Shown here: piece by piece, positions 23,560 through 45,833 of the stretch
How positions within the stretch are numbered: the stretch's first letter is position 1
Layout: each line of letters starts with the position of its first letter
From: Actinomycetota bacterium
GTDB taxonomy: Bacteria > Actinomycetota > UBA4738 > HRBIN12
Direction of reading: 5' to 3'
Length of the DNA: 64,000 nt
NCBI GenBank assembly: GCA_040882605.1
Contig: JBBEAY010000017.1
Span: 27,933-91,932, forward strand
The notes under the pieces: generated by a model
Seen by the model: the letters and a program-made list of their open reading frames with translations, nothing else
Told to the model about the DNA's origin: nothing
The model's database searches: none
Position numbers and translations under genes: made by a program

Positions 23560-23699
23560 GCGAACCCCTCCTCGCTCCGCGCCCAGCGAGAGCTGAGCGG
23601 GCTCAACTTCAATGGCGCTGAGTACCATAGGTGCACCGTGCTATGCAAGTGTCACCCATGTGCACCGCCAGTCGATAGTCCGTTCGGACCCCGACACTG

Positions 23700-24938: not shown

Positions 24939-25048
24939 TCGGCTCGAACGCCGCCGACGGCTTGGGTCCTGCAGTTGCTAGCATCGCGCCCACCCACCGC
25001 GTCGACACGACGACTGAGGACACGACGACAGAGAGAAGAGGGATATCC

Positions 25049-25888: not shown

Positions 25889-28023
25889 GCCGACGGCCGC
25901 ACGCTTCGCGGCCGCGCGCGCCGCGGCCCCGTTACGACCTCAGGCCGCTGCTCGCGCCACGCTCTATCGCGGTTGTGGGGGCGTCGGAGTCACCGGACTC
26001 CTGGGCGCCCGAGATCGAGCGGTCGCTGCGCCACATCGGCTACGACGGCGATCTGTATCCGATCAATCCGAAGTACGACGTTGTGTGGGGCCGACCCTGC
26101 CTGCACGCGATCGGTGAGCTGCCGGCCGGCGTCGATCTCGTCGTGTTCGTGGTGCCGGCGCGGGTCGTAGTGCGCATGATCGATGACTGCGCCGCGCGCG
26201 GCGTCAAGAGCATCATGGTGGTGTCGTCGGGCTTCGCCGAAGCCGGCGTCGAAGGCGTCGCGCTGCAGGAGGAGCTGCAACGGGCGGCGCAGCGCACCGG
26301 CATCCCGGTGCTCGGCCCCAACGTCGAGGGTTTCGTCAACTACGTGGAGCGCGTCGCACCCTACGGCACGACTCCGCCGCCTGAACCGCTCGCCGGCAAC
26401 ATCAGCGTGATCAGCCAGAGCGGAACCGTGGCCTGGGCCATGAACCAGCAGGCGTCGGATCGCGGGGTGGGCTTGCGAATCATCCTTGGGGTCGGCAACG
26501 AGGCCGTGCTCGGCCTCGGCGACATGTTCGAGTGGGCGGCCGATGACGCGAAGACCAAGGTGGTCACGAGCTACATCGAGACGATGCGCGACGTCGAGGG
26601 CATCGGTCGGGGACTCGACGCGCTGCGTCGCGCAGGCAAGCCCGTGCTCATCTGCGCGCCCGAGGGTCGGAGTGAGGCCGCCCGCCGTTCGATCGTGGCG
26701 CACACGGGCGCGCTCGCCGGCAACACGACTCTGCGCGACGCGTGGCTGCGGGCGCGCGCGGTGATCCTCGTCGAGGACCCCGTCACCATGTTCGAGGCGG
26801 CGGTGCTGCTCTCGAACGTGAGGAAGCTCCGCACGACCGGCGTCGCCGCGGCTCTGCAGTCGGGCGGCGCCTGCACGCTGTTCGCGGAGGCGGCAGGCGC
26901 CGCCGGCCTCGATCTACCAGAGCTCTCGCTCGTGACGAAACGCAGGCTGAAGAAGGTGCTGCCGCATTTCGCCTCTCAGAACAACCCGCTAGACGTGACT
27001 GGCCAGGCGGCCGTCGAGACCGAGATGTACGAGGGCGCGCTCGAGGCGCTCGCGAACGACTCCGCGGTGGGATTGATCGCGTTCGACGCGGTCCCGCCGC
27101 GACTCGACGGCGAAACGCCCTGGGCCGACCCGGTGCTGAAGAAGGTCAAGCAGTTGCGGGGCGCGACCGGGGTGGCGTTCGCGAGCGTCGCGATGGGTCC
27201 GCTCGCGTACATCCCGGCCGCCAAATCGTTCACGAGCAGGCACACACTGCCGTTCTTGCAGGGACATCGCGCATCGGCGGGCGCGATCAAAGCGCTCGTC
27301 GAGTTCCAGAGCTCGAAGCGGCGAGCCACTGCCGACCTGCCGCCGCATCCGAACCGCGCGAAGGCGCTACGCGTTTTGAAGGGCCACGAGGGACCGATCG
27401 ACGAGGAGACGGGCGCGAAGATCCTCGGGTTGTACGGCGTCGCTCGGCCGAAAGAACGAACCGTCGCGTCCCCGGCACAAGCTGCGGCGTTCGCACGAAC
27501 GATCGGATTCCCGGTGGTCGTGAAAGCGCAGGCGCCCGAGATCCCGCACAAGGCCAAGCTCGGCGGGGTGCGGCTCGGCCTGCGGAACGCGATCGATGTC
27601 GAGGTGGCCGCGGCCGAGGTGCTCGAGGCGGCGAGGCGCGCAGGCGCGAGGGCGCCCAAGGTGCTCGTGCAGCAGATGGTGCACGGCGCCGAGGTGCTCG
27701 TCGGCGCGGTCGTCGACGACCGCTTCGGGCCGATGATCACCGTTCGTCCGGGGGGCGTGCTCGCCGAGGAAGGTGACGCGGTCTTCATGCCGTGTCCACT
27801 GACCCCTGCGCAGGCGCGCAGCTACGTCGCTGACCACGCCGAGGCCTGTGGACTCAGCGCGGAGTCGCACGACCTACGCGCCATGGCGAAGGCGGTTGAG
27901 GCGATCTCGCGCATCACTCACGACCTGCGGGGGCGTCTCACTTCGTTCGAGGCGAACCCGCTCCTCGTGAGCGAGCACGATGCCGTGGCGGTCGACGCCC
28001 TCGCGGAAGTCCGCTCCGAGTGA
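25885..28023 (+). CDS. Acyl-CoA synthetase (NDP-forming), fused CoA-binding plus ATP-grasp domains
   Basis: Trimmed from the 865-aa ORF to the GTG overlapping the crotonase stop. SIAVVGAS...DLYPINPKY...VVFVVPA is the CoA-binding (succinyl-CoA synthetase alpha-like) domain. The C-terminus is an ATP-grasp domain (GFPVVVKAQAPEIPHKAKLGGVRLGL). Confidence 0.78.
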   Translation: MSRRPHASRPRAPRPRYDLRPLLAPRSIAVVGASESPDSWAPEIERSLRHIGYDGDLYPINPKYDVVWGRPCLHAIGELPAGVDLVVFVVPARVVVRMIDDCAARGVKSIMVVSSGFAEAGVEGVALQEELQRAAQRTGIPVLGPNVEGFVNYVERVAPYGTTPPPEPLAGNISVISQSGTVAWAMNQQASDRGVGLRIILGVGNEAVLGLGDMFEWAADDAKTKVVTSYIETMRDVEGIGRGLDALRRAGKPVLICAPEGRSEAARRSIVAHTGALAGNTTLRDAWLRARAVILVEDPVTMFEAAVLLSNVRKLRTTGVAAALQSGGACTLFAEAAGAAGLDLPELSLVTKRRLKKVLPHFASQNNPLDVTGQAAVETEMYEGALEALANDSAVGLIAFDAVPPRLDGETPWADPVLKKVKQLRGATGVAFASVAMGPLAYIPAAKSFTSRHTLPFLQGHRASAGAIKALVEFQSSKRRATADLPPHPNRAKALRVLKGHEGPIDEETGAKILGLYGVARPKERTVASPAQAAAFARTIGFPVVVKAQAPEIPHKAKLGGVRLGLRNAIDVEVAAAEVLEAARRAGARAPKVLVQQMVHGAEVLVGAVVDDRFGPMITVRPGGVLAEEGDAVFMPCPLTPAQARSYVADHAEACGLSAESHDLRAMAKAVEAISRITHDLRGRLTSFEANPLLVSEHDAVAVDALAEVRSE

Positions 28024-28868
28024 TCTTCGGCCTCGCGGCCGCCCTCGGCTGGGGCCTCGCCGACTTCACCGGCGCGGTCGGGGGCCGGCGCATGGGCAGC
28101 CTTCCCACGGTGGCGGTCGCGCAGTTGTTCAGCGCGGCAGTGATGACGGCGTTCATGGTCGCGGGCGGGCACAGCCCCGGCGTGATCGCGCCCTATGCGG
28201 GGTTCGTCGTGTTGAACGGGCTGGCGTCGGGCGGGGCGTATCTCTCGCACTACCGGGCGCTGCAGCTCGGCCCGGTCGCGGTCGTATCGCCGATCGGCGC
28301 GACCTACGCCGTGGTCGGCGTGACGCTGGCGGTCGTGTTCCTCGGTGAGCGTCCCGGCCCGGCGGCGATCGTCGGCGGCGTGCTCACCGTGGTCGGCGTG
28401 ATGCTCACGTCGACCGATCTCGCGAGGCTGCGAGCAGGCACGCACACCAGGGCGCCCGGTCTTCCGTGGGCCATCGTCTCGTCGGTGCTGTTCGGCGTCG
28501 GCGGGTTCCTGCTCGGCTACTTCGCGCAGGAAGTCGGATGGGTTCCCGGGCTCTGGGCATCGCGATGCGCGCAGCTCGCGATGTTCGCGGCGCTCTCGGT
28601 CGTCCGCCGGCGAGAGTTCGATCGGCTCGGGTGGAACCTCGCCCTCGTCTGGGCGCTCGCGTCGGGTGCGTCGGACCTGCTCGGCGTCGTGACCTACTCG
28701 ATCGGCGCCTCGCAGGGCCTCGTCTCGATCGTGCTGATCGCCTCCGCGGTGTTCCCGCTGATCGCCGTCTCGCTCTCGATCGCCTTCCTGCACGAGCGGC
28801 CGGTGGCGAACCAGTACGTGGGCATAGCTTTGGTCGTGACGGGGCTGGCCGCGCTCGGCGTCGGGTGA
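28020..28868 (+). CDS. EamA/DMT family transporter
   Basis: 282 aa with 10 predicted transmembrane helices arranged as two EamA repeats. GTG start overlaps the upstream stop. Confidence 0.75.
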   Translation: MIFGLAAALGWGLADFTGAVGGRRMGSLPTVAVAQLFSAAVMTAFMVAGGHSPGVIAPYAGFVVLNGLASGGAYLSHYRALQLGPVAVVSPIGATYAVVGVTLAVVFLGERPGPAAIVGGVLTVVGVMLTSTDLARLRAGTHTRAPGLPWAIVSSVLFGVGGFLLGYFAQEVGWVPGLWASRCAQLAMFAALSVVRRREFDRLGWNLALVWALASGASDLLGVVTYSIGASQGLVSIVLIASAVFPLIAVSLSIAFLHERPVANQYVGIALVVTGLAALGVG

Positions 28869-29024
28869 GCGCGGCGTACCCGCGATCGACGCGGAGTGAA
28901 CACCTGCGCACCCTGGGTTGTCGGCTGCGCAACCCTTGACTTGCGCACTTCCGCGCGCGGGCCGACTATCTGGCGTCCGGACGGTGGGCCCGCCGAGGCC
29001 CGACCGAGGAGGGGGTGTCGCGCC

Positions 29025-30056
29025 TTGGCCGAGATTCCGAACGCTACGGTCTCGTGTCGCAACGTATGGAAGGTCTACGGACCCAAGGCCGATCGCATCG
29101 TGGGTACGCCCGATGCAGACTTGCCGCGTCAGGAGCTGCTCGCCAAGACAGGGTGCGTGGTCGCCGTGCGCGACGTGTCGTTCGACGTCTCCCAGGGCGA
29201 GGTCTTCGTGGTGATGGGCCTGTCGGGCTCCGGCAAGTCCACGCTCGTTCGCATGCTGAATCGGATCCATGACCCGACCGCCGGCGAGGTGCTCGTCGAC
29301 GGGCAGGACGTGATGCAGATGAACGACGAAGAGCTGCGCCGAGTGCGCCGGACAAAGATCAGCATGGTGTTCCAGCACTTCGGACTGCTGCCGCATCGGC
29401 GCATCGTGGACAACGTTGCATTCGGTCTCGAGATCCAAGGGATGGACAAGGACGATCGCCTGGCGAAGGCGATCGAAGTGCTCGACGTGGTGGGTCTCGC
29501 GGGTTGGGGAGATCGGTTCCCCGACGAGCTCTCGGGCGGCATGCAGCAGCGAGTCGGTCTCGCCCGAGCGCTGGCCACCGACCCCGAGGTCATGCTGTTC
29601 GACGAGCCTTTCAGCGCACTCGACCCCTTGATCCGGCGGGACATGCAGAACGAGGTCCGCCGCCTGCAGAACGAGATGAAGAAGACGATGATCTTCATCA
29701 CGCACGACTTGGCTGAGGCGCTGAAGCTGGGCGATCGCATCGCGATAATGAAAGACGGAGTGTTCGTCCAGGTGGGTACTCCCGAGGAGGTCGTGGCCCA
29801 TCCGGCGAACGACTACGTGGCGGATTTCACGAAGGATGTGCCGCGAGCGCATGTGCTGACTGCTCGGGCGATCATGCGCCCTGTCAACGGGCACGGATCG
29901 GCCGACGGTCCTGTGGTCGGGCCTGCGACGGTCGTGCAGGAACTGATCCCGATGGTGGCCGACGCCGATCGCACGATCCGAGTTGTGGACGGCGACGATC
30001 TTCTGGGGTTGGTGGATCGCAGCGCCGTGATGGCCGCGCTGGTCGAGGACCGCTGA
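29025..30056 (+). CDS. Glycine betaine/proline betaine ABC transporter ATP-binding protein (ProV/OpuAA) with C-terminal CBS pair
   Basis: TTG start after GGAGGGGG. Walker [10 protein letters not shown], signature [15 protein letters not shown], Walker [12 protein letters not shown], and the [20 protein letters not shown] region are characteristic of the OpuAA/ProV subfamily. A CBS-like tail follows. Confidence 0.85.
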
Positions 30057-30057
30057 G

Positions 30058-32121
30058 ATGGCCGTCGCACCGCCTCGTTGGCGGGTCGTGGCCGATGGCG
30101 CTGCGACGCTGCCATTGGCACCGACGCAGCCGCCCAACGCATGGCCCAGGCGCATCGGCTGGGTCGCGCTCGCTGTCGTCGTCGCGGCGATCGGCCTGCT
30201 GTGGCTCTCACCCGGCTTTCCTGAGGGGTGGGTGGTGGATGTCACCGCCTGGTTCGACGCCTTCCGTGACTGGGCGATCCAGAACCGAAAGACGAGCCCC
30301 TTGTTCACCTACTTCCTGAGCCCGATCGAGGAGACCGTCGACACGCTCGTCGACGCGACCGTCACTGCGCTCGAGAGACTCACTTGGCTCGGGCTGGTGG
30401 CCGGCGCCGCCGCGATCGCCGGTGTGCTTGCCGGCTGGAAGATGGCCGCGCTCACGGCCGCCGGCGTGCTCTCTTTCGGGTTGCTCGGCGCGTGGGATGC
30501 CAGCCTCGAGACCCTCGCGCTCGTGGTCGTCTCAGTCGCGATCGCGGTGGGCATCGGGGTGCCACTCGGCATCTGGGCGGGACGCAGGCCGAAGGTCGAG
30601 CGGGTGCTACGTCCCATCCTCGACGCGATGCAGACGATCCCTGCCTATGCCTATCTGCTGCCTGCGGTGCTGTTGTTCGGCATCGGGAACCCACCGGCGC
30701 TGATGGCCACTCTTGCATTCGCCCTGCCGCCGGCGATCCGCCTCACCGCACTGGGCATCCGGGGCGTGCCGGCAAGTTCGCTCGAGGTCGCCACTTCATT
30801 CGGGTCGACCGAACGTCAACGGCTCCGGCTCGTGCAGGTTCCGCTTGCAAAGCCCTCGATCATGCTGGGTGTGAACCAAACGATCATGATGGCGCTCGGC
30901 ATCGTCGTCATCGCCGCGTTCGTCGGCGCCGGGGGACTTGGGCAGACCGTGCTCGATGGTTTGCAGCAGTTGAACGTGGGCGCGGCCCTCAATGGAGGCA
31001 TCGCGATCGTGGTGATGGCGATCGTGCTCGACCGAGTATCGACAGCGTGGAGTCAGCGCGACCGGCGCACGACGAAGCCCGCACGCATCGCGGGCCGATC
31101 GCTCACTCGACGTCAACTCGCGATGGGGGCTCTGCTCATCACGATCGTTGCGGTCGTGATCGGTCGCGAGGTGCTGCGTCAGCAGTCGTTCCCCGAGGGG
31201 TGGGAATCCTCGGTGGCCACGCCAGCCAATGCGATCGTGGACTGGTCGCAAGAACATCTCGGGAGCACCACGAGTGCGATCAGCGACTTCGTGCTCGTCC
31301 GCCTTCTCGACCCTCTCGAATCACTGTTCGTAGGGGTGCCATGGTGGATGATGGCCGGAGCGTTCGCGTTGATCGGGTGGCGGGTCTCGGGAAGGAGGCT
31401 GGCGATCGGGTCCTTCGCCTGCATCGCCGCCCTCGGGGTGCTCGGCATGTGGGATCTGTCGATGGGAACGCTTGCGCAAGTGCTCGTGGCGGTGGTGATC
31501 ACGCTGTCGTTCGCGATCCCGCTCGGCATCATCGCCGCCCGCAGCAACACGTTCGAGCGCATCTCGAAACCTATCCTCGACGCGATGCAGACGATGCCAG
31601 CCTTCGTCTACTTGGTGCCTGTGCTGTTCCTCGTCGAGCCAGGGCGGGTACCGGCGATCATCGCGTCGTTCATCTATGCGCTCCCGGTGAGCATCCGCCT
31701 GACGAATCTCGGGATCCGACAGGTGCCGGAGGAGATCGTCGAGGCTGGTCGATCGTTCGGGTCGACCTCCGGCCAGCTATTGCGCAAGGTGCAGTTGCCG
31801 CTGGCTCGGCCCACGATCCTGCTCGGGGTGAATCAGACGATCATGATGACCCTGTCGGTCGTCATCATCGCCGGGCTGATCGGCGCGGCGGGGCTCGGGC
31901 AGGAGGTCGTGTTCGCCCTCGGCAAGCAGCAGATCGGTCGCGGGATCGTCGCTGGCGTATGCATCCTGCTCCTTGCGGTCGCTCTTGACCGTATAACTCA
32001 AGCGATGGGGTCGGCGCCGCGCTCGATGCGGGGTCCCGTAGGCATGGGGCTCGGCTGGTGGTACCGCGTGTGTGCGATCACGAAGACGGTCGAAGACAAC
32101 CAAGGGAAGGAGAAGGGATGA
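30058..32121 (+). CDS. Glycine betaine ABC transporter permease, fused tandem ProW/OpuAB domains
   Basis: 687 aa. It contains two homologous permease halves, each with a binding-protein-dependent EAA loop ([15 protein letters not shown] and [15 protein letters not shown]). Confidence 0.85.
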
Positions 32122-33134
32122 GGAAGCGCAAGTTCGCGTTCGCGGCGGCGATGCTCGCGGTCACTACGCTCGTGCTCGCTGCATGCAGCGACGTCGAGGA
32201 GGGTGGCGCGACCACCGACACAGGGGGTGGCGGCACCAACGCCGCCGCGCAGTGCGCCGGTGACCCGATCACGATCGCGGTCAACCCATGGGTCGGCGCC
32301 GAGGCAAACGCCGCCGTCGCGCAGGCCGTGATGCAGAACGAGATGGGTTGTACGGTCGAGCTCCAGGAGATCAACGAGTCGGGGCAATTCCCGGCGATGG
32401 CCTCCGGCGATGTCGACGCGACCCTCGAAGTGTGGCCTTCCGGCCACCTGAAGGACCGTAGGGACTACATCGAGAAAGCAGGCGACGTCGTCGACGGCGG
32501 CGAGCTGGGGATCACCGGCAACATCGGCTGGTTCATGCCGTCCTATCTAGTCGAGGAGAACCCGGACCTCGCGACATGGGAAGGCTTCAAGGAGAACGCC
32601 GACGCCTTCGCGACCGCGGAGACCGGTGACAAGGGCCGCTTCCTCGGGGCTGACACGACGTACTCGATCTTCGACGAGGCGATCATCGCGAGCCTCGGCC
32701 TCGATCTCGAGGTGGTCTACAGCGGCTCCGAGGCCGCGTCGCTCGCGGCGCTCGACAAGGCGTACAACTCGCAGGAGCCCATCCTGATGTATTGGTGGAC
32801 CCCGCAATGGGCCAACGCCAAGTACGACCTGGTAGAGGTCGAGCTGCCCGCGTACAACGAGGAGTGCGGGGCCATCGCCGCCGAGGACCCCGACGCCGCG
32901 GCCGGCTACAACTGCGACTACGCCGAGGACGTGCTCTACAAGGCGTTCAGCGCTGGGCTCGAGACCAAGGACCCCGCGGCGTTCGAGTTCTTCTCGGCCT
33001 TCACCTGGACCGAGGAAGACCAGAACGCGGTTGCCCTCTCCATCCAAGAGGGGACCGACCCCGCCGAGGCTGCCCAGGCGTGGATCGACGAGAACGCAGA
33101 TGTAGTGGAGGGGTGGCTGCCCGCGGCCTCCTGA
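32118..33134 (+). CDS. Glycine betaine ABC transporter substrate-binding lipoprotein (ProX/OpuAC)
   Basis: Start at Met21 after GGAAGGAGAAGGG, with an ATGA overlap onto the permease stop. Signal peptide plus lipobox LAAC. The mature sequence has the aromatic-box pattern of betaine binders. Confidence 0.8.
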
Positions 33135-33214
33135 CAACCGAGGCTTTCACGACGATCGATGGGGGGCGGCCCGGCGGGTCGCCCCCATCGTTCCCGAAGG
33201 ACGGCATCTCTCTC

Positions 33215-34666
33215 ATGACGGTCGAGATCGATGGAGGCTCGCTCACGTCGGACGACCTCGTGCGCGTGGCTCGCGCCGGCGCGACCGTCACGCTCGCTCC
33301 GGCGGCAGCGGCACGCATGTCCAAGGGGCGCGCCGTGGTCGAGGCGGCGCTCTCCCGGGGTGACGAGGTTTACGGCCTCACGACCGGGGTCGGCGAGCGC
33401 AAGTCCGTGCGCCTCGACCCTGCGGAGATCGACTCCTACAATCGTCTGCTGATCCTGAATCACCGGGTCGGGCAGCAGCCCTTCGCGGAAGCCGACGTCG
33501 TGCGCGCCACGATGCTCCGGCTCGCCAACGGGCTCGCCGCCGGCACCGTCGGCGTAAGGCCGGAGCTCGCGCACCTCGTGGTCGACGCACTGAACTCGCG
33601 TAGCACGCCGGCCGTGCGCGCTCGTGGGTCGATCGGGCAGGCCGACCTCGCACCGATGGCCGACCTCGCCTATGGGCTGCTCGAGGCTTCCGCCTTCCGC
33701 CTGGGCGCGGGGGAGGGGCTCGCGCTGATCGACAACAATGCGTTCTCGTCCGGCATGGGGACGCTCGCGGCCTGGGATTGCGGGCGACTGCTCGACACGC
33801 TCGACGTGGCAGGCGCACTGAGTTTCGAGGCCTTCTCTGCGAACCTGTCGATCCTCGACGTCTCGGTGGCCGAGAGCCGGCCATTCCCGGGGGTCAAGGC
33901 CACCATCGAGCGGCTTCGTTCATTGCTGGAAGGAAGCGATCTCTGGAGCCCGGGCCCGCCACGCAACCTGCAGGATCCGCTCAGCTTCCGCACGATGCCC
34001 CAGGTCCATGGCACCGCCCGCGACATCTTCGACTTCGTGATGACACAGCTCGAGCTGGAGCTCAACGCTTCCCAAGGCAATCCCGTCGTCGACCCGGACA
34101 GGGACACGATCCGGGGGGCCGGCAACTTCGACGCCTTCGCGCTGGCGGTGGCGCTCGACCAACTGCGCGTCGTGTTGGCCACGGTGCTCACGAGCGCCGC
34201 GGAGCGTTGCCTCAAGCTGGTGCACGCCCCGTTCTCGGGGCTTCCCCACGGCTTGGCGGCGCGTGACGGACTCGCCGAGGACGCGTTCAACATGTTCGGG
34301 GTCTCGGTGCAGGCTTTCGCCGCCGAGGCCCGTGCGCTGGCGGCTCCCGTGTCGTACGACGTGGTCAGCACGACGCAGGCCGCGGGCATCGAGGACCGAG
34401 CCACGATGGCGCCGCTCGCCGCGAGCCGGCTCGCCGAGATGGTCTCGATCGCCCACGGGATCGTTGCGGTTGAGCTCTGTGTCGCGGCGCAGGGGGTCGA
34501 TCTGAGACCGGGGCGTCGGCTGGGCGCCGGTGCCGATCGCGTGCGAGACCTAGTGCGAAACGTCGTGGCCGCGCTCGGCGAGGGCGAAGCTGCTCCACAG
34601 GATCTCGAGCCGCTCGTCGACCTTGTGCGGAACGGGGCGTTCAGCTCGATCGCCGAGGGCGCTTGA
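33215..34666 (+). CDS. Aromatic amino acid ammonia-lyase (HAL/PAL) family homolog in which the MIO-forming Ala-Ser-Gly triad reads Gly-Gln-Ala
   Basis: It has the family N-terminus (LDGGSLT..DLVRVARAG), the YG.TTGVG block, and the downstream conserved regions (LIDNNAFSSGMG, QDPLSFR). At the position of the cofactor-forming GxxGASGDL it reads GSIGQADLAPMADL. Confidence 0.75.
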   Translation: MTVEIDGGSLTSDDLVRVARAGATVTLAPAAAARMSKGRAVVEAALSRGDEVYGLTTGVGERKSVRLDPAEIDSYNRLLILNHRVGQQPFAEADVVRATMLRLANGLAAGTVGVRPELAHLVVDALNSRSTPAVRARGSIGQADLAPMADLAYGLLEASAFRLGAGEGLALIDNNAFSSGMGTLAAWDCGRLLDTLDVAGALSFEAFSANLSILDVSVAESRPFPGVKATIERLRSLLEGSDLWSPGPPRNLQDPLSFRTMPQVHGTARDIFDFVMTQLELELNASQGNPVVDPDRDTIRGAGNFDAFALAVALDQLRVVLATVLTSAAERCLKLVHAPFSGLPHGLAARDGLAEDAFNMFGVSVQAFAAEARALAAPVSYDVVSTTQAAGIEDRATMAPLAASRLAEMVSIAHGIVAVELCVAAQGVDLRPGRRLGAGADRVRDLVRNVVAALGEGEAAPQDLEPLVDLVRNGAFSSIAEGA

Positions 34667-34669: not shown

Positions 34670-35128
34670 TCAGGCGCCGGTGAGCACGTCGTAGGGCTCG
34701 AACTCCAGCCGGTCGACGTCGGCCTGCTTGGTGAGTCGATGGAACTCGAGCGCGTACCGCTCGTACATCTGCTCGACGAGTGTGATGGCCTCGATGTGCC
34801 GAGGTCCCCGCGATGCCGTCCGCGCGTGTTCACGTGAATCCCAGATGCAGAAGGACAGGCACTCACGGGCGCTGGTGAGGGGGCCTCGGTAGTAGTGGAC
34901 GAGCCCGCGAGCCTGTGCGGCTTCCTCGGCCGCACGGAGGTCGTACTCCTCGAGAAGCCGCTCATCGGCGCCTTCACGCTGGGTCGATCGGAAGGCGACC
35001 AGGTACCACTCACCGGCCTCAACCCGTGGTGCGCAGCTCGTCCACGTGAATGCGTCGGGCAGCGGCAGGCTCGCGTAATCGCCCGTTGTCGGCGCCAGGT
35101 CCTCGAAGGTGCCGGTCGCGATCTCCAT
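34670..35128 (-). CDS. Hypothetical protein, unknown function
   Basis: 152-aa ORF, not low-complexity, and convergent with the HAL-like gene. It has its own AT-rich upstream region carrying a palindrome. No motif recognised. Confidence 0.5.
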   Translation of the reverse strand: MEIATGTFEDLAPTTGDYASLPLPDAFTWTSCAPRVEAGEWYLVAFRSTQREGADERLLEEYDLRAAEEAAQARGLVHYYRGPLTSARECLSFCIWDSREHARTASRGPRHIEAITLVEQMYERYALEFHRLTKQADVDRLEFEPYDVLTGA

Positions 35129-35287: not shown

Positions 35288-36064
35288 TCAGGGGGTGACT
35301 GCGTCGAGCTCTGCCGTCAGCGATCGCGCGGCGCGATGCAGCGCACCCGTGGCTCGATCCCGCCACGCTGAGCCGCACCTGGCGTACGGGCCCCACAGGG
35401 CAAGGGCGCCGACGATGCCGTCGCCGCGGAACACGGGCACCGCGATCGAGACAGAACCGTCGATGAGCTCGCCCTCACTGAACGCGATGCCGCTTTCCCT
35501 GATCTCATCGAGCCCCTTGCGCAGCGGCGTTTCGGACGGGGTCGTGGGAGTGATCGCTTCCAGCCCCTGAGCGATGACCTCCTCGACGACCTCGGGTGGC
35601 GCGAACGACAGCAGCACTCTGGAGCCCGCTCCCGCGTGCAGGGGATAGGTCCCCCCCGGTTCCAGAGCGACCCGGATGCCGTCGCGGGATTCGTGTTGAT
35701 GGAGGCACATGGCCGTCAGGCCCACTCGCCGCATCACCACCGCTGTCTCGCCCTGGCTCTCGACGAGCATGCTGAGAACGGGTTCCGAGAGGCGGATCAA
35801 CAGATCGCTCGTCACGTGTGAGCCCGAGCCGATGACGAGCTTCGGGCCGAGCCGGTACCGACCGTCGTGCCGGTCGACGAAGCCGAACTCGGTCAGCGTT
35901 CGCAGGTAGCGGTACGCCGTCGACTGGGGCATGTCGAGCAACATCGCGAGATCGTCCGCCCTGATCGCCCCGCGGTCGGCGATGACGAGCAGCAGCCGGA
36001 GGCCACGAGCGAACGACGTATCCTCCGCCGCTTCCTCGGGCGGATGATCGCGAGCCGTGGACAT
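35288..36064 (-). CDS. IclR family transcriptional regulator
   Basis: N-terminal wHTH (LRLLLVIADRGAIRADDLAMLLDMPQSTAYRYLRTLTEFGFV) and a C-terminal IclR effector domain. Start placed at Met57 (MSTARDH). Confidence 0.82.
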   Translation of the reverse strand: MSTARDHPPEEAAEDTSFARGLRLLLVIADRGAIRADDLAMLLDMPQSTAYRYLRTLTEFGFVDRHDGRYRLGPKLVIGSGSHVTSDLLIRLSEPVLSMLVESQGETAVVMRRVGLTAMCLHQHESRDGIRVALEPGGTYPLHAGAGSRVLLSFAPPEVVEEVIAQGLEAITPTTPSETPLRKGLDEIRESGIAFSEGELIDGSVSIAVPVFRGDGIVGALALWGPYARCGSAWRDRATGALHRAARSLTAELDAVTP

Positions 36065-36212
36065 GCCCACATTCTCTCCGACCGCGCGAGTCCCGGCCAC
36101 CGGATCGGGCCGTGGCCGGAGCGATCCTCGTTTCCGTGGGTTGCCGATATCGCAACGCGCCCGTTGTTCCTGCAACAGAGCCTGCGTACCGTTCCTTCGT
36201 ACGGCCACCGCG

Positions 36213-36236
36213 ATGGCCATGACGATGGCCATGACG
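36213..36236. promoter_or_regulatory. Tandem 12-bp direct repeat, each unit carrying the palindrome ATGGCCAT (candidate IclR operator); coordinates approximate
   Basis: gatggccatgac gatggccatgac lies in the 194-bp gap between the divergent IclR and dimethylglycine oxidase genes. Confidence 0.4.
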
Positions 36237-36258
36237 AGGAAGCGACGGGGATCGAAGC

Positions 36259-38772
36259 ATGCGCGATCGGGCCCAGACGGTGATCATCGGCGCCGGCATC
36301 GTCGGCAGCTCCGCCGCCTTCCATCTGACCGAGCTCGGTGTGACCGATGTGCTCGTGCTCGACCAGGGTCCGTTGTTCGAGACGGGCGGCTCGACCAGCC
36401 ATGCGCCCGGCATCATCTTCCAGACGAATGGGTCGCGCACGATGTGCCGCATCGCGCAGGACTCGGTGGCGCTGTACGACTCCCTCGACCTCGACGGTGA
36501 GCGATGTTGGTACGGCGCAGGAAGCCTCGAGGTCACGACGACCACCGAGCGCATGCAGGAGCTGAAGCGCCGCCAGGGATTCGCACGTTCCTACGGCATC
36601 GAGGGCACGGAGCTGCTGACACCGGCCGAGGCGGCCGCGTGCTCGCCGTTGCTCGACCCTTCGACCATCCTCGGCGCGTATTGGGTGCCGAGCGACGGGG
36701 CTGCGAAAGGCGTGAAGGTCGTAGAGGCGCTCGCCCGCAAGGCCCAGGCAGTGGGCGTCGAGTTCGAGGGCGGGGTGGCGGTCACCGGCTTCGACATCCG
36801 CGACGGACGCGTGCACGGCGTGGAGACCGACCGGGGAAGGGTGGAGTGCGAGCGGGTGCTGCTGTGCGCCGGGATCTGGGGGCCGACGGTGGGCGCGCTT
36901 GCCGGCGTGCCGATCCCGCTCGTGGCGGTGCAGCACCAGCTCGTGTGGACAGACCCGATCCCCGAGCTGTCGGGACTCGACGGCGACGTCTGGCTGCGAC
37001 AGCCCGTCGTGCGCCACCAGGACATGTCGCTGTACTTCCGCCAGCGAGACGACCACTTCGGCGTCGGCAACTACCGGCACGAGCCGATCGTCACGCCCCA
37101 GTCGGCGATCCGCGCGACGGCCGAGAAGCCGGCCAAGAAGCCAGCCAAGAAGCCGGGAAGCGCCATGCAACCGTCGCTCATGCCTTTCACGCCCGACGAC
37201 TTCGACCTCTGCGAGGCAGAAACCGCGCGTATGTTCCCGGCGCTTGCGGGGCGCATGCGGCCGAGCGATCCCGCACGCACCCTGAACGGCATGTTCTCTT
37301 TCACGTCCGATGCCGGGTCGATCGTCGGTGAGAGCGCGGCTGTCCGCGGGTTCTGGGTCTGCGAGGCGGTGTGGGTAACCCACGCCGGCGGCATGGCACG
37401 CCAGGCCGTCGAATGGATGGTTGACGGCGCACCGAGCTACGACCTTGCCGAAGCCGACGCGAATCGCTTCTACCCGTTCCAGACGTCGGCGCCCTACGTC
37501 CTCGAACGCGGGAAGCAGCAGTACCGCGAGGTCTACGACATCATCCATCCACTGCAGCAGCCGGCGAAGCCACGGGGGCTGAAGCTCACGCCGTTCTTCG
37601 AGCGCCATCGCGAGCTGGGCGCCGAGTTCTTCCAGGGGGCGGGGTGGGAGCGGCCTCAGTGGTTCGCCGCCAACCGCGAGCTCGTGAGTGGCGTGACCCA
37701 CGAGTGGGCTCGTCGAACCGGGTGGGCCGCGCGCGGATGGTCACCAGAAGTCGGCGCCGAGCATCTGGCAACCCGCGATCGCGCGGCGCTGTTCGACATC
37801 ACCCCGTTCGCGAAGTTCGACGTGACGGGCCCCGACGCGCTCGCCTACCTCGAGCGGGTGTTCGCGAACCGCATCGATCGCCCCGTGGGCTCGATCGTGT
37901 ACACCGCCGCGCTGACCCAACGCGGCGGCATGAGGCTCGATCTCACCGTGACTCGGAAGGACGAGAACCGCTTCCGTGTGGTGACGGGTGGTGGCTCGGG
38001 GCACCACGACGAGGCGTTCCTGCGCCGGCAGATCCGCGACGGGGAACGGGTGCAGATCAACGTGCGCACGGGGTCGCTGTTCGCGCTCGGGCTCTGGGGC
38101 CCGAAGGCGCGAGATGTGCTGCAGGCCGTCACCGACATCGACGTCTCGAACGACGCGTTCCCGTACATGACCGCGCGGTACCTAAGCATCGGCGAGGTTA
38201 CCCCCGTGTGGGCACAGCGCATCAGCTACGCCGGCGAGCTCGGCTGGGAGCTGTACGGGCAGATCGCCATGGGCCAGCGCGCCTGGGACGTGCTGTGGGA
38301 AGCCGGCCGCGAGCACGGCCTGATCGCGGCGGGCGCCGGTGCGTTCGATTCGCTTCGGCTCGAGAAGGGCTACCGCCTCTGGGCCCAGGACATCGACACC
38401 GAGCATGACCCGCTCGCTGCGGGTTTGGGCTTCGCGGTGCGCTGGGACAAGGAGTTCACGGGCAAGCAGGCCCTGGAGGCGATCCGCGAACGAGGCGGCC
38501 CGTCGTCGTGCCTCTCGTGCATGACGCTCGACGACGACCAGGCGGTCGTCATGGGCAAGGAACCGGTGTGGCACGACGGCCGAGTGGTTTCGTACGTGAC
38601 GAGCGCGAACTACGGCTACTCGATCGGACGCGGCATCGTGTACGGCTACTTGCCGCCCGAGCTGGCGCACGAGGGCACGGCGGTCGAGGTCGAGTACTTC
38701 GGCGGTCGGTTCGCGGCCACGGTGACGAACGATCCGCTCTGGGACCCAAAGGGCGAGCGCCAGAAGACCTGA
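36259..38772 (+). CDS. Dimethylglycine oxidase-like bifunctional enzyme (N-terminal FAD oxidase plus C-terminal GcvT-like folate-binding domain)
   Basis: 837 aa. The N-terminus is VIIGAGIVGSSAAFHL...HAPG (FAD). The C-terminal half has an aminomethyltransferase-like fold (YTAALTQRGGMRLDLTV...GYRLWAQDID). It has the size and architecture of Arthrobacter DMGO and of the sarcosine/dimethylglycine dehydrogenase family. Confidence 0.82.
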   Translation: MRDRAQTVIIGAGIVGSSAAFHLTELGVTDVLVLDQGPLFETGGSTSHAPGIIFQTNGSRTMCRIAQDSVALYDSLDLDGERCWYGAGSLEVTTTTERMQELKRRQGFARSYGIEGTELLTPAEAAACSPLLDPSTILGAYWVPSDGAAKGVKVVEALARKAQAVGVEFEGGVAVTGFDIRDGRVHGVETDRGRVECERVLLCAGIWGPTVGALAGVPIPLVAVQHQLVWTDPIPELSGLDGDVWLRQPVVRHQDMSLYFRQRDDHFGVGNYRHEPIVTPQSAIRATAEKPAKKPAKKPGSAMQPSLMPFTPDDFDLCEAETARMFPALAGRMRPSDPARTLNGMFSFTSDAGSIVGESAAVRGFWVCEAVWVTHAGGMARQAVEWMVDGAPSYDLAEADANRFYPFQTSAPYVLERGKQQYREVYDIIHPLQQPAKPRGLKLTPFFERHRELGAEFFQGAGWERPQWFAANRELVSGVTHEWARRTGWAARGWSPEVGAEHLATRDRAALFDITPFAKFDVTGPDALAYLERVFANRIDRPVGSIVYTAALTQRGGMRLDLTVTRKDENRFRVVTGGGSGHHDEAFLRRQIRDGERVQINVRTGSLFALGLWGPKARDVLQAVTDIDVSNDAFPYMTARYLSIGEVTPVWAQRISYAGELGWELYGQIAMGQRAWDVLWEAGREHGLIAAGAGAFDSLRLEKGYRLWAQDIDTEHDPLAAGLGFAVRWDKEFTGKQALEAIRERGGPSSCLSCMTLDDDQAVVMGKEPVWHDGRVVSYVTSANYGYSIGRGIVYGYLPPELAHEGTAVEVEYFGGRFAATVTNDPLWDPKGERQKT

Positions 38773-38823
38773 AATGCCAGAAGATCTGGACAGATCTGAA
38801 CAGAAGGTGTGGGGGGAGGCGAC

Positions 38824-39522
38824 ATGGCCGACGAAGAAGAGCTCGATCTCACCACGCTTCCCGACGACGAGCTCGTGAAGCAGATGCACGACGATCTCTA
38901 CGACGGGCTCGCCGACGAGATCTTCGAGGGCACCAACATCCTGTTGGAACGCGGGTGGGGCGCCGACAAGGTGCTGAACGATGCGCTCGTCGAGGGCATG
39001 CGCATCGTGGGCATCGACTTCCGCGACGGCATCTTGTTCGTGCCCGAGGTGTTGCTCGCGGCCAACGCGATGAAGGCGGGCATGGCGATCCTGCGCCCGC
39101 TGCTCGCTGAGACCGGCGCCGAGCGCATGGGCACCGTGGTGATCGGCACCGTGAAGGGCGACATCCACGACATCGGCAAGAACCTCGTCGCGATGATGCT
39201 CGAGGGCGCCGGCTTCGACGTGATCGACCTCGGCATCAACAACCCGGTCGAGAAGTACTTGGCCGCGCTCGAGGAGCATCAGCCCGAGATCCTCGGAATG
39301 AGCGCGCTGCTCACGACCACGATGCCCTACATGAAGGTCGTGATCGACGAGCTCGAGGCCAAGGGGCTCCGTGACAAGTACATCGTGCTGGTCGGCGGTG
39401 CGCCGCTGAACGAGGAGTTCGGCAAGGCGGTCGGGGCCGACGCCTACTGCCGTGATGCCGCGGTCGCCACCGAGACCGCGCAGGCGTTGGTGCTGGCCAA
39501 GCGCGCTGCGGCGGCGTCGTGA
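38824..39522 (+). CDS. Corrinoid (cobalamin-binding) protein of a methyltransferase system (MtgC/MtbC-like)
   Basis: N-terminal helical cap followed by a B12-binding Rossmann domain with the DxHxxG motif (GTVKGDIHDIGKNLV) and GMSALLTTT. Start placed at MADEEEL after GGGGGGAGG. Confidence 0.82.
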   Translation: MADEEELDLTTLPDDELVKQMHDDLYDGLADEIFEGTNILLERGWGADKVLNDALVEGMRIVGIDFRDGILFVPEVLLAANAMKAGMAILRPLLAETGAERMGTVVIGTVKGDIHDIGKNLVAMMLEGAGFDVIDLGINNPVEKYLAALEEHQPEILGMSALLTTTMPYMKVVIDELEAKGLRDKYIVLVGGAPLNEEFGKAVGADAYCRDAAVATETAQALVLAKRAAAAS

Positions 39523-39543
39523 TGCTCCAGGAAGGTGCCGACC

Positions 39544-39873
39544 ATGGCTGAGCTGACGGTGATCAGGTGGCGGGACGTCCCGATGCAAGTGCTCGCGCGC
39601 GGCGCGGGAGGCGAGAGCGCGCGGGCGCTGCTTCCAGATCGGTTCCAGGAAGCGGTCGACGCCGCAGCCATGGTCGCCGGCCTGATCGGGTCCGATGACT
39701 ACACGGAGCAGATGCGCATGGACTCCCGGGAGTGCGGTGACGACTTGCAGCACGAGGTCGACACCGAGACCGTGACGATCCTCTCGGAGTGGGATGAGCA
39801 GGTGCTGCGCGAGACGATCCGCTCGGGCGGCGTCAGGGGCGGCGACCCGATCGCAGGCGGCGGCGGGCGGTAG
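39544..39873 (+). CDS. Small conserved hypothetical protein between the corrinoid protein and the pterin-binding methyltransferase
   Basis: About 110 aa, acidic, with a Gly-rich tail. It is spaced tightly on both sides (about 20 nt and 4 nt), so it is probably co-transcribed. No motif recognised. Confidence 0.5.
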   Translation: MAELTVIRWRDVPMQVLARGAGGESARALLPDRFQEAVDAAAMVAGLIGSDDYTEQMRMDSRECGDDLQHEVDTETVTILSEWDEQVLRETIRSGGVRGGDPIAGGGGR

Positions 39874-39877
39874 ATCT

Positions 39878-40861
39878 ATGGCTGACACCGTCGTGAGCTC
39901 GGCGACCCGCGAGGTCGTGATCGGCACGGGCCGTCCGTTCGTGATCATCGGTGAGCGCATCAACCCCACTGGGCGCAAGAAGCTCGCCGAGGAGATGAAG
40001 GCCGGTGACTTCACGACCGTGATCGCCGACACGCAGGCCCAAGTTGCCGCCGGGGCGCACATGCTCGACGTGAACGCCGGCATCCCGCTCGCCGACGAGC
40101 CGACGATCCTCGCCGAGACGGTGAAGCTCGTGCAGTCGCTCACCGACGTGCCGCTCTCGATCGATTCCTCGATCGTCGCCGCGTTGGAGGCCGGCCTCGC
40201 CGTGTATCAGGGCAAGCCACTCGTGAACTCCGTGACTGGCGAAGACGATCGCATCGAGACCGTGCTGCCGCTCGTCGCGAAGCACGGCGCGGCGGTCGTC
40301 GCGATCACCAACGACGAGACCGGCATCAGCGAGGACCCCGACGTGCGGTTCGCGGTGGCCGAGAAGATCGTGCGCGCGGCCGCCGACCACGGTATCGCCC
40401 CGCACGACATCGTCGTCGATCCGCTCGTGATGCCCGTGGGCGCCATGGGCACGGCCGGCCGGCAGGTCTTCGCCCTCGTGCGGCGACTGCACGACGAGCT
40501 CGGTGTCAACACGACGTGCGGCGCCTCCAACGTCTCGTTCGGGTTGCCGAACCGCAACGGGCTGAACGGCGCTTTCCTCGCGATGGCGATCGCCAACGGC
40601 ATGACGAGCGCGATCACCAGTCCGCTGCACGAGGAGGTGCGACAGGCCGTGATGGCCGCCGACGTGCTGATGGGCGCCGACGCGCACGCGGCCTCCTGGA
40701 TCCGACGCTACGGCGAGGGGCGGAGCCAGGGCGACGCCGCCACGGGGGGCAGGCGCGGAGGCCGCGCCGGGCGTCGGACGAGCGTCGAGCCGAGCGAGGG
40801 CGCAGCCTCGCCGGCCGAGCCGCCGGCCGAGCCGCCGGCCGAGGCGGCGCCAGAAACGTGA
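39878..40861 (+). CDS. Methyltetrahydrofolate:corrinoid methyltransferase (pterin-binding domain; MtgA/MetH-pterin-domain-like)
   Basis: A TIM-barrel pterin-binding pattern of the MetH/AcsE/MtrH type: PFVIIGERINPTGRKK, LDVNAG, SIDSS, NSV, CGASNVSFGLP. Confidence 0.75.
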   Translation: MADTVVSSATREVVIGTGRPFVIIGERINPTGRKKLAEEMKAGDFTTVIADTQAQVAAGAHMLDVNAGIPLADEPTILAETVKLVQSLTDVPLSIDSSIVAALEAGLAVYQGKPLVNSVTGEDDRIETVLPLVAKHGAAVVAITNDETGISEDPDVRFAVAEKIVRAAADHGIAPHDIVVDPLVMPVGAMGTAGRQVFALVRRLHDELGVNTTCGASNVSFGLPNRNGLNGAFLAMAIANGMTSAITSPLHEEVRQAVMAADVLMGADAHAASWIRRYGEGRSQGDAATGGRRGGRAGRRTSVEPSEGAASPAEPPAEPPAEAAPET

Positions 40862-42882
40862 CCGAAGCCGAAGGCTCGCTCGTCGTCTTCACGCCTTCCG
40901 GCAAGCGGGGCCGCGTCACCACGGACACCAACCTGCTCGAGGCCGCCCGCTCGCTCGGCGTCGACCTCGACTCGGTCTGCGGCGGGCGCGGCATCTGCGG
41001 CCGGTGTCAGATCGTCGTGGCCGAAGGCAAGTTCGCGAAGCACGCCATCACTTCGAGCGCCGATCACCTCACGCCGTTCAGCGAGCCGGAGACCCGCTTC
41101 CGCGAACGGAGCGGTCTCGCCGCCGACCGCCGGCTGGGTTGTCACGCCCGCGTGTGCGGTGACCTCGTGGTCGATGTGCCGCCCGAGAGCCAGCTGCATC
41201 GTCAGGTCATCCGCAAGGATGCCGACGCGCACCCGATCGAGGTCGACCCGGTGCTGCGACTGCATTACGTGGAAGTCCGCGAGCCCGATCTCGCCGATCC
41301 GAGCGGCGATCTACAGCGGGTCGCCGAGGCGCTCGAACGCGACTGGTCGCTCACGGGGCTCGCCGCCGACCCGCAAGTGCTCCCGTCTCTGCAGCGCACG
41401 CTGCGCACCGGCGACTGGAAGGTCACGGTCGCCGTGCACGACGGCGCCGCGATCACCGCGGTGTGGGCCGGCTTCCACGATTCGGCGCTCGGGGTGGCCT
41501 TCGACGTGGGGTCGACGACGGTGGCCGGGCACCTGTGCGACCTGCACACCGGCGAGGTGCTCGCGAGCGCCGGCGCGATGAATCCGCAGATCCGGTTCGG
41601 CGAGGACCTGATGAGCCGCGTCAGCTACGTGATGATGCATCCGGGTTCCGAGGCCGAGCTCACCGCTGCGATCCGAACTTGCGTGAACGTGCTCATCACC
41701 GATGTATGCGAGCAGGCCGGCGTCGAGCCGAACGATGTGCTCGAGCTCACCGTCGTCGGCAACCCGATCATGCACCACCTGTTCCTGGGACTCGATCCGA
41801 CCGAACTCGGCGGCGCGCCGTTCGCCCTCGTGACCGACGAGGCCGTGCATCGCACTGCCCGCGAGCTCGACCTGACCGCGACGAACGCCGGCGCGAGGGT
41901 CTACGTGCTTCCTTGCATCGCGGGGCACGTCGGTGCCGACACCGCCGGTGTGATCTTGAGCGAAGCACCGCATGAACAGGACACGGTGAACCTGATCGTC
42001 GATGTCGGCACGAACGCCGAGATCGTGCTCGGCAACCGCGACCGGCTGCTGGCTGCTTCCAGCCCGACGGGCCCGGCGTTCGAGGGCGCCCAGATCTCGT
42101 GCGGACAGCGCGCGGCGCCGGGTGCGATCGAGCGCGTGCGCATCGATCGGGACACGTTGGAGCCGAGGTTCCGGGTGATCGGCGACGAGAGATGGAGCGA
42201 CGAGCCGGACTTCGACGCGATGACGGTCACTGGGGTCGCGGGCAGCGGCATCATCGAGGCGATCGCGGAGCTGTTCCTGGCCGGCGTGATCACGGCCGAC
42301 GGGGTCATCGACGGCGCGCTCGCCTCCCGGAGCCCCCGTGTCGTCGCAGACGAGCGCACGTTCTCATACGTCTTGCACGAAGCGCCCGGCACTCCGAGGC
42401 TCGTGATCACCCAGAACGACGTTCGCCAGATCCAGCTCGCGAAAGGCGCCCTCTACGCGGGGTGTCGTCTCTTGATGGATGCCCTCGGCATCGAGACCGT
42501 CGACCGCATCAGGCTCGCCGGTGCATTCGGCGCGCACATCGACTCGGTGCACGCGATGGTGCTAGGGCTCGTGCCCGACTGCGATCCCAAGCACGTGACG
42601 AGCGCCGGGAACGCCGCCGGCACCGGCGCCCGGATCGCCCTGTTGAACCGAGCCGCTCGCGACGAGATCGAAGCGGTCGTGCGCCGCGTCGAGAAGCTCG
42701 AGACCGCCGTGGAGCCTCGGTTCCAAGAACACTTCGTGGGGGCGATGGGCATCCCTCACGCCACCGACGCGTTCCCGCGCCTCGCTAAGGTCGTGGATCT
42801 GCCGGCGCCACGCGCGCCAGAGGCCGGTGACCGTGTGCGACGCCGCCGGCGCACCACCCAACCCGAGAGGAGCAGCACATGA
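40858..42882 (+). CDS. Corrinoid reductive activase (RamA-like: 2Fe-2S ferredoxin domain plus ASKHA ATPase domain)
   Basis: GTG start overlaps the upstream stop (GTGA). The N-terminus carries a plant-type ferredoxin cluster, CGGRGICGRCQ ... C. The C-terminal roughly 550 aa match the ASKHA/DUF4445 family typical of RamA/RACE activases. Confidence 0.78.
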   Translation: MTEAEGSLVVFTPSGKRGRVTTDTNLLEAARSLGVDLDSVCGGRGICGRCQIVVAEGKFAKHAITSSADHLTPFSEPETRFRERSGLAADRRLGCHARVCGDLVVDVPPESQLHRQVIRKDADAHPIEVDPVLRLHYVEVREPDLADPSGDLQRVAEALERDWSLTGLAADPQVLPSLQRTLRTGDWKVTVAVHDGAAITAVWAGFHDSALGVAFDVGSTTVAGHLCDLHTGEVLASAGAMNPQIRFGEDLMSRVSYVMMHPGSEAELTAAIRTCVNVLITDVCEQAGVEPNDVLELTVVGNPIMHHLFLGLDPTELGGAPFALVTDEAVHRTARELDLTATNAGARVYVLPCIAGHVGADTAGVILSEAPHEQDTVNLIVDVGTNAEIVLGNRDRLLAASSPTGPAFEGAQISCGQRAAPGAIERVRIDRDTLEPRFRVIGDERWSDEPDFDAMTVTGVAGSGIIEAIAELFLAGVITADGVIDGALASRSPRVVADERTFSYVLHEAPGTPRLVITQNDVRQIQLAKGALYAGCRLLMDALGIETVDRIRLAGAFGAHIDSVHAMVLGLVPDCDPKHVTSAGNAAGTGARIALLNRAARDEIEAVVRRVEKLETAVEPRFQEHFVGAMGIPHATDAFPRLAKVVDLPAPRAPEAGDRVRRRRRTTQPERSST

Positions 42883-44438: not shown

Positions 44439-44520
44439 CCCGGGGTCCGGCTTCGGTTCACGATCAGGCAGGCCGATACGCCATCATGATGCGCGGCCGC
44501 GGCAAGGAAGGCGGAACGAG

Positions 44521-45405: not shown

Positions 45406-45833
45406 GTCGGGCCTTGGCGTCTCCGAGGGGTTCGGTGTCTGGCGGACATCTGCGTGGCCCATTTTCGAGTTTGGGCGTGACGGGCACACCTTCTCCATGG
45501 CGGAGATCCCGTTGGTGCTCGGGCTCTGTTTCGTGGCGCCGGCCAGGGTCGCCGCCGCGCAGCTCGCCGCCGCCGCGCTGATCGTGATCGGCGGCAGCAC
45601 TCCTTGGGGCTTGACCCAGACGCGGCCGTGCAGAGGTCACTGCCCTGGAACCTCGGGTCACGTTCTCGGCGTGTGCACGCCTATCCTCCATGGCAGACTG
45701 CGCTTCCGGTCAACGTGAACGGGGGTCATTCCGTGGAGCAGCGATACGACATCGTCGTGATGGGGGACGGGCACGGTCTCTCGTCGCGCCGCGTGTTAGG
45801 CGATCTGAACAAGGGACCTCACTAGCCGTGGCG

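Follow-up and report, generated by a model that had tools for sequence, protein, structure and literature searches.

The window analysed here is a stretch of 64,000 nucleotides from an Actinomycetota bacterium (contig JBBEAY010000017.1). Its gene at 33215..34666 on the plus strand encodes a protein of the histidine and phenylalanine ammonia-lyase (HAL/PAL) family that has lost the Ala-Ser-Gly triad from which the 4-methylideneimidazol-5-one (MIO) cofactor is formed. Judged from its sequence, this protein (hereafter the lyase) is, on balance, somewhat probably a MIO-independent trimethylammonia-lyase acting on an alpha-N-trimethyl amino acid. Hercynine (histidine betaine) is the leading candidate for the substrate, and we put it forward tentatively.

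A HAL/PAL-family protein without the MIO triad

The gene starts with an ATG codon and its 483-aa product matched PF00221 (Lyase_aromatic) along the full profile, with residues 10-448 aligned to positions 1-465 of 466 (E 2.9e-108, 363 bits against a cutoff of 27.3 bits). The family N-terminus, the YG.TTGVG block (here VYGLTTGVG, which contains Tyr53) and several downstream blocks were in place, as the initial annotation of this DNA had stated. The fold was likewise otherwise intact in an AlphaFold2 model of the lyase (predicted local distance difference test score, pLDDT, 85.9; predicted template modelling score, pTM, 0.89). The top fold match of the model was 6s7j, the ergothionase of Treponema denticola, and Foldseek gave a template modelling (TM) score of 0.91 both to this structure and to the HAL structure 1b8f. 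The same ergothionase was the top match in the PDB by sequence (E 6.2e-53). With the HutH equivalog TIGR01225 of NCBIfam the lyase reached 291 bits, below the cutoff of 539.15 bits; it was also below the cutoffs of all the other lyase and mutase models curated in NCBIfam and matched no ergothionase or betaine-lyase model there.

The gene is real and functional, its activity being read from the sequence. GC content at third codon positions (GC3) was of the coding type along the whole open reading frame (ORF), at 0.86 with strong periodicity, in window DNA of 66-72% GC. The ratio of nonsynonymous to synonymous substitution rates (dN/dS) against three orthologues was 0.17-0.20; the gene is under purifying selection, and a pseudogene or decaying paralogue was ruled out by these values. 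The nearest relatives come from metagenome-assembled genomes of uncultured soil Actinomycetes, the proteins of loci L007 and L008 being 84-85% identical to the lyase (L numbers denote the loci of relatives). Because the lyase has no signal peptide, its N-terminus pairing with that of HAL from residue 2 without a leader, it is predicted to be cytoplasmic.

The MIO position was located by alignments to Pseudomonas putida HAL and T. denticola ergothionase at codons 138-145 (33626..33649, plus strand), which read GSIGQADL; residues 138-151 are GSIGQADLAPMADL. In the pairwise HMMER alignment to P. putida HAL (GSVGASGDLAPLAHM) Gln142 is paired with Ala142 and Ala143 with Gly144, Ser143 faces a gap, and Asp144 matches Asp145, so that the layout is GSIG-QA-DLAPMADL in the lyase and GSVG-ASG-DLAPLAHM in HAL. 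In place of the triad stand just two residues, Gln142-Ala143, so that one residue has been deleted. Since the serine that supplies the methylidene and the glycine that cyclises are both gone, MIO cannot form, in agreement with the initial annotation. That annotation had read the triad as Gly-Gln-Ala; the loss of the triad stands, and the register has to be moved by one, as Gly141 is the conserved glycine that precedes the triad and not a member of it.

The two-residue segment was present in 86 of 86 relatives from independent assemblies, 79 of which had Gln at position 142. Together with dN/dS and the GC3 periodicity this excludes a sequencing error or frameshift that masks or shifts an Ala-Ser-Gly triad, the artefact that had been allowed for beforehand. 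In comparison with the MIO-dependent enzymes of the family, namely HAL, PAL, tyrosine ammonia-lyase (TAL) and the tyrosine and phenylalanine aminomutases (TAM, PAM), the lyase has no Ala/Ser-Ser-Gly triad and carries Leu256 instead of the Tyr280 of QDPYSLR. A two-residue replacement of the triad, which had been presented as new, is already found in ergothionase 6s7j, released in 2019.

An exhaustive HMMER search covering 1.84 billion representatives returned 7757 matches, and the best 150 of these were classed at the triad. A two-residue segment was found in 118 and an xSG motif in 18, while 14 were fragments without the region. With 118 of the 136 assessable proteins sharing its two-residue segment, the lyase therefore lies inside a very large, mostly uncharacterised MIO-less branch. 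Among these best 150 representatives xSG co-varied perfectly with Tyr at HAL position 280 and His at HAL position 330: all 18 xSG proteins had the Tyr and the two-residue ones did not. The closest xSG protein first appeared at 236 bits, and the clade of the lyase itself, a large one of soil actinobacteria with no characterised member, was marked by Glu393-x-Arg395. Databases name these proteins "histidine ammonia-lyase"; the label is almost certainly wrong for this protein and thousands of its relatives, because the protein cannot form MIO.

Second PF00221 paralogues that are MIO-less too were observed at some loci of relatives. The one at 360-1814 of L078 reads GSVGQSDL and is 46% identical to the lyase. 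Those at 16609-17973 of L068 and 5116-6477 of L076, 33-34% identical to the lyase, read GSIGASDL, the Gly alone being missing from Ala-Ser-Gly. The window contained no second PF00221 gene.

Active-site residues and the proposed reaction

In HAL numbering, Tyr53 is the beta-proton base, His83 and Glu414 bind the imidazole, and Gln277, Arg283 and Asn313 bind the carboxylate, as described in two preprints (10.1101/2025.08.13.670108, 10.64898/2026.04.22.720169). The corresponding residues of the lyase are Tyr53, His83, Glu393, Gln253, Arg259 and Asn289, and Phe305 corresponds to Phe329. Tyr53, which the HAL and ergothionase literature describes as the conserved acceptor of the beta-proton, is encoded at 33371..33373 on the plus strand. 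Tyr53 and Glu393 were invariant among the 86 relatives (86/86 each), Asn289 was conserved in 84/86 and His83 in 82/86; Gln253, Arg259 and Asn304-Phe305 were likewise invariant or nearly so. Beyond the triad, the changes relative to HAL are Tyr280 to Leu256, His330 to Asp306, Ala63 to Lys63 and His416 to Arg395.

This conservation bears on the suggestion of the initial annotation that the protein has a non-lyase function in binding or regulation. The loss of the MIO residues and the presence of an IclR gene two genes away would be consistent with such a catalytically dead paralogue, which we nevertheless consider very improbable: Tyr53 and the carboxylate and ring ligands are conserved, dN/dS is low (0.17-0.20), relatives of the lyase fill enzyme slots in hut operons, and the MIO-less relatives characterised so far are all active, efficient lyases (10.1101/2025.08.13.670108, 10.64898/2026.04.22.720169). 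The annotation had also proposed a different substrate class. This was the right alternative, and the class is one already known, that of the alpha-N-trimethyl betaines.

According to the same two preprints (10.1101/2025.08.13.670108, 10.64898/2026.04.22.720169), ergothionase removes trimethylamine from ergothioneine and does not need MIO since trimethylammonium leaves well; further MIO-less enzymes are the histidine-betaine trimethylammonia-lyase of Shewanella woodyi and, in S. oneidensis, an ergothionase and an N-pi-methyl-histidine-betaine lyase. The MIO-less members with a described activity are without exception trimethylammonia-lyases that depend on a trimethylammonium group. The lyase combines the absence of the triad with the retention of Tyr53, of Gln253, Arg259 and Asn289, and of His83 and Glu393, as a trimethylammonia-lyase would. 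From these residues we infer a reaction in which the substrate carboxylate would be gripped by Arg259, Gln253 and Asn289 and the ring by His83 and Glu393, with Tyr53 abstracting the beta-proton. The permanently cationic trimethylammonium group would be housed in the pocket freed by Gln142-Ala143, together with Leu256 and Asp306, and would depart from C-alpha as trimethylamine. The product would be a trans-2-enoate, urocanate if hercynine is the substrate.

The identity of the substrate was considered from the position at which ergothionase binds sulfur. Thiolate binding in the T. denticola enzyme reportedly depends on Lys384 as an essential residue, and the position is neutral (Asn439, Gln434) in the enzymes for sulfur-free substrates (10.1101/2025.08.13.670108, 10.64898/2026.04.22.720169). 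Pairwise alignment places Val363 of the lyase (codon at 34301..34303, plus strand) at this site. Within the clade the position is occupied by Val, Ala, Asn, His or Ile and never by Lys; among the representatives of the HMMER search, Lys was seen in the more distant ones only. Because Val363 replaces the thiolate-binding Lys384, the lyase is probably not an ergothionase, and the retained imidazole ligands together with a neutral residue at this site favour hercynine or a close sulfur-free derivative. A true ergothionase, which would convert ergothioneine to thiourocanate and trimethylamine, is improbable for a further reason: the window holds no urocanase-family gene, neither a urocanase nor a thiourocanate hydratase homologue, and the urocanase encoded beside a relative at L005 scores as hutU. 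In favour of a true ergothionase, soil actinobacteria make and encounter ergothioneine, the top PDB match is an ergothionase both by sequence and by fold, and the two-residue segment and the QDPLSFR block are common to both proteins.

Importer, betaine island and gene contexts of relatives

The lyase gene is the last of a same-strand array (23679-34666) that runs from an amine oxidase through an enoyl-CoA hydratase, an acyl-CoA ligase, an EamA transporter and the ATPase, permease and substrate-binding protein (SBP) of an ATP-binding cassette (ABC) importer to a spacer and the lyase. The initial annotation had placed the gene right after a betaine transporter, and indeed it begins 80 bp past the SBP gene. 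The importer set consists of the ATPase (28869..30056, plus strand, PF00005; the coordinates are stop-to-stop and the true start lies further in), a fused double permease of the ProW/ChoW quaternary-amine importer type (30058..32121, plus strand; two BPD_transp_1 matches, with ChoW at 478 and ProW at 462 bits, both above the NCBIfam cutoffs) and an OpuAC-type substrate-binding lipoprotein (32118..33134, plus strand; PF04069 with E 1.2e-46, likely ATG at 32118, lipobox in MRKRKFAF...LAAC). The best PDB match of the SBP was 4xz6, the trimethylamine N-oxide (TMAO)-binding protein TmoX (E 6.5e-34), in which Glu131 hydrogen-bonds the TMAO oxygen (PMC8918994). By comparison with that report the SBP keeps the tryptophan (aromatic) cage for quaternary ammonium and is predicted to be a quaternary-amine binder. 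A role as TMAO binder is weakened by the change of the TMAO-specific Glu131 to Ile and of Phe106 to His. We infer that this OpuA/ProU-type importer would bring in the alpha-N,N,N-trimethyl amino acid (betaine) on which the lyase acts. A quaternary-amine ABC importer precedes the lyase in the window and in L007, L008 and L088, and this arrangement was seen only in these close relatives.

The spacer between the SBP and lyase genes contains a GC-rich hairpin at 33157..33190 (plus strand), formed by the perfect inverted repeat CGATGGGGG...CCCCCATCG. We rejected it as a terminator: the folding of the spacer (minimum free energy -37 kcal/mol, z -1.9) was equalled by 8 of 200 shuffled sequences and was not significant, and no T tract follows the hairpin.

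The betaine catabolic island named in the initial annotation was confirmed downstream of the lyase, where it is a complete glycine-betaine demethylation set. It comprises a dimethylglycine (DMG)-oxidase-like DAO-GCV_T fusion (36235-38772), a corrinoid methyl-transfer module (38800-45405) and two sarcosine-oxidase-like sets standing back to back, the first with SoxA-like and DAO genes (45826-50316, plus strand) and the second with SoxG, SoxA-like and DAO genes (50328-55896, minus strand). In the corrinoid module a B12-binding protein and a small PF13769 ORF are joined by a pterin-binding methyltransferase, the reductive activase RACo, a non-pyrrolysine MttB and an MTHFR-like ORF. The probable task of the module is the demethylation of glycine betaine to dimethylglycine; its MttB (519 aa) scored 747 bits to PF06253, below the trimethylamine-specific cutoff. 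The module is complete in what is apparently an aerobic high-GC actinomycete. Between the lyase and the island lie two minus-strand genes. The first (34670..35128), an ORF of 152 aa that converges on the lyase gene, had no match in the Pfam and NCBIfam copies searched; copies 76-78% identical to it occur beside the lyase in L007 and L008, and it also stands there in L088, where precomputed annotations assign PF27604 (PB2B2_08) to the orthologue. The second encodes an IclR-family regulator (35288..36232; PF09339 and PF01614) that is 52% identical to the IclR gene of the hut/lyase locus L005. Upstream of the importer, the flavin amine oxidase, enoyl-CoA hydratase, ADP-forming acyl-CoA ligase family protein and EamA transporter (23679-28868, plus strand) occur in the same order in L088. 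They might process betaine-CoA or the product of the lyase; all their matches are generic, those of the hydratase and ligase falling below every specific cutoff.

These upstream genes form part of the case for a MIO-less lyase, mutase or hydratase whose substrate is something other than an alpha-N-trimethyl amino acid, for example one with another onium leaving group, or with a non-histidine scaffold whose enoate would be CoA-activated and hydrated by the upstream ligase and hydratase. The conservation in L088 of the whole array from amine oxidase to lyase fits this explanation, and Arg395, Gln366 and the variable pocket residues are unlike those of all characterised enzymes. We regard it as unlikely, because the imidazole ligands His83 and Glu393 are retained, the hydratase and ligase matches are generic, and the AcsA and arginase neighbours of the nearest subgroup are housekeeping genes. 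The acyl-CoA synthetase beside the closest outgroup (L004, L087) had been considered as a hint of a CoA fate and is a genuine AcsA (961 bits against a cutoff of 725); the arginase-family neighbour of the relative P0021 is likewise a true arginase rather than a HutG.

Gene contexts of relatives were compared in 80 genome loci and several metagenome loci, with neighbour counts taken over 83 loci. A second subgroup, approximately 57% identical to the lyase (L034, L040, L041, L061), lies close to genes for an OpuAC importer, a DMG-oxidase-like protein and an aldehyde dehydrogenase. The main Gaiellaceae group is characterised by a 382-aa MetE-like gene (PF01717) that overlaps the start of the lyase gene in 55 of the 83 loci, and a BHMT-like homocysteine S-methyltransferase gene (PF02574) lies directly downstream of the lyase in 28 loci. 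A MttB homologue was found within a few kb of the lyase in L073, L079, L081 and L084, immediately downstream in L079 and L081. A divergent ATP-grasp gene was observed upstream in 36 loci. The Gaiellaceae-type arrangement is seen, for example, at 8856-13034 of L001, and likewise in most of L009-L086.

The company of methyltransferases led us to weigh two further explanations. It is possible, though doubtful, that the lyase acts on some other natural onium compound or betaine and not on ergothioneine or hercynine, with the reaction coupled to the MetE-like/BHMT-like or corrinoid MttB neighbours, for example if a methyl group is harvested first and dimethylamine is then eliminated; Tyr53, Lys63, His83, Leu256, Asp/Glu306, Glu393 and Arg395 would then be the clade signature. 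The narrower proposal, in which a neighbouring methyltransferase takes one methyl and the lyase then releases dimethylamine from the resulting N-alpha,N-alpha-dimethyl amino acid, draws on the persistent linkage of the clade to enzymes converting quaternary to tertiary amines, and on the fact that no trimethylamine-consuming genes were seen nearby. It is distinctly unlikely. The methyltransferases of the window fit the demethylation of glycine betaine as a supply for the DMG oxidase and the sarcosine oxidases, in which the lyase need not be involved, and the characterised MIO-less lyases strictly require the trimethylammonium group (10.64898/2026.04.22.720169).

At three loci a relative of the lyase occupies the hutH slot beside hutU, hutI and hutF (L005 99-11473, L078 3903-11407 and L080 2704-11437), in clusters that also include genes for a HalD-like iron/2-oxoglutarate (Fe/2OG) oxygenase and an IclR protein. 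No canonical hutH was found within 10 kb of these hut-linked lyases. The hutU, hutI and hutF of L005, the locus on which this was checked, were all above their equivalog cutoffs; its urocanase exceeded the hutU cutoff (677 against 375 bits) and fell below that for thiourocanate hydratase (628 against 930). The hutH-slot position points to urocanate as the product, at least in this subgroup; together with the replacement of His83 by Ser or Cys in these three relatives, it suggests a modified histidine substrate still feeding the hut pathway. The same position, the lack of a canonical hutH and the retained histidine-type ligands could also be read as signs of a cryptic HAL that deaminates histidine without MIO. 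This is barely credible, given that the Tyr280 and His330 of HAL are replaced in the lyase, that its HutH score is far below the cutoff, and that the MIO-less enzyme of S. woodyi is inactive on histidine and all proteinogenic amino acids (10.1101/2025.08.13.670108, 10.64898/2026.04.22.720169).

Several observations weigh against the trimethylammonia-lyase placement or the support drawn for it from gene context. Overall similarity scarcely separates the two candidate families, with 183 bits to ergothionase and 175 to HAL and a TM score of 0.91 for both, and the nearest characterised enzyme is only about 30% identical to the lyase. Arg395 of the clade stands in the place of a His in HAL and ergothionase, and the clade is variable at positions 82-84, 173-174, 308, 363 and 366; this suggests more than one substrate, and the clade probably covers more than one. 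The hut-linked relatives of the three loci above are exactly those with His83 changed to Ser or Cys, and their context may therefore not transfer to the lyase of the window, which has His83. The hairpin in the spacer means that co-transcription of the SBP and lyase genes is not established. A tblastn search of the window found no hut genes, canonical hutH included, and known trimethylamine-oxidising genes were not seen in the window. Finally, the commonest neighbours in the clade are the MetE-like and BHMT-like methyltransferases, whose role beside a trimethylamine-releasing lyase is unexplained.

If the trimethylammonia-lyase placement is correct, the capacity to release trimethylamine from histidine-type betaines is predicted to be widespread among soil Actinomycetota (Gaiellales, Thermoleophilia and relatives), where it has so far gone uncounted, and the placement yields a short list of candidate substrates. 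The recurrent pairing with MetE-like, BHMT-like and MttB genes could lead to new betaine biochemistry, and coupling of the lyase to these methyltransferases, if true, would be a new way of assimilating betaine carbon and methyl groups in soil.

Comparison with MIO-less lyases and HAL

Of the characterised enzymes, ergothionase 6s7j offers the closest likeness. In both proteins Ala-Ser-Gly is replaced by two residues, Glu-Gly in ergothionase and Gln-Ala in the lyase, and both have an identical QDPLSFR block with Leu for the Tyr280 of HAL, Lys63, an acidic residue after Asn-Phe (the site of HAL His330; Glu in ergothionase) and an Ile-Glu-Asp motif that includes Ile392. The first four of these characters and Ile392 are derived ones that HAL lacks. 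The catalytic Tyr, His83 and the Glu are retained and the fold is the same. The two differ in that identity is approximately 28-30%, Lys384 is Val363 and His416 (HAL numbering) is Arg395 in the lyase, and no thiourocanate pathway genes lie near the lyase gene. The shared two-residue layout, Leu256, Lys63 and the acidic residue 306 speak for a possible common descent of the lyase with the characterised MIO-less lyases, as opposed to an independent loss of MIO; the overall scores to ergothionase and to HAL are nearly equal.

The lyase also resembles the histidine-betaine lyase Swoo_3913 of S. woodyi and the N-pi-methyl-histidine-betaine lyase SO_3299 of S. oneidensis, which were compared by their published residues. 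As the preprints report, these two enzymes are MIO-less, keep the catalytic Tyr and the carboxylate and imidazole ligands, and are neutral at the Lys384 site, with Asn439 and Gln434 there versus Val363 in the lyase. Both are periplasmic, and the genes next to theirs encode flavocytochrome reductases of the urocanate type that serve anaerobic respiration. The lyase has neither a signal peptide nor an adjacent flavocytochrome reductase gene; it belongs to a high-GC actinomycete, and its gene follows an ABC importer with IclR and demethylation genes nearby. For characterised actinobacterial or aerobic hercynine lyases, the literature turned up only the two Shewanella preprints.

HutH of P. putida (1b8f/1gkm) shares the fold at a TM score of 0.91, and the equivalents of its Tyr53, His83, Gln277, Arg283, Asn313, Phe329 and Glu414 are kept. 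The lyase differs from it in having no Ala-Ser-Gly and no MIO, and in the changes of Tyr280 to Leu and His330 to Asp. Because a MIO-less HAL homologue acting on a betaine has already been published, the finding refines the annotation of this family more than it opens a new field.

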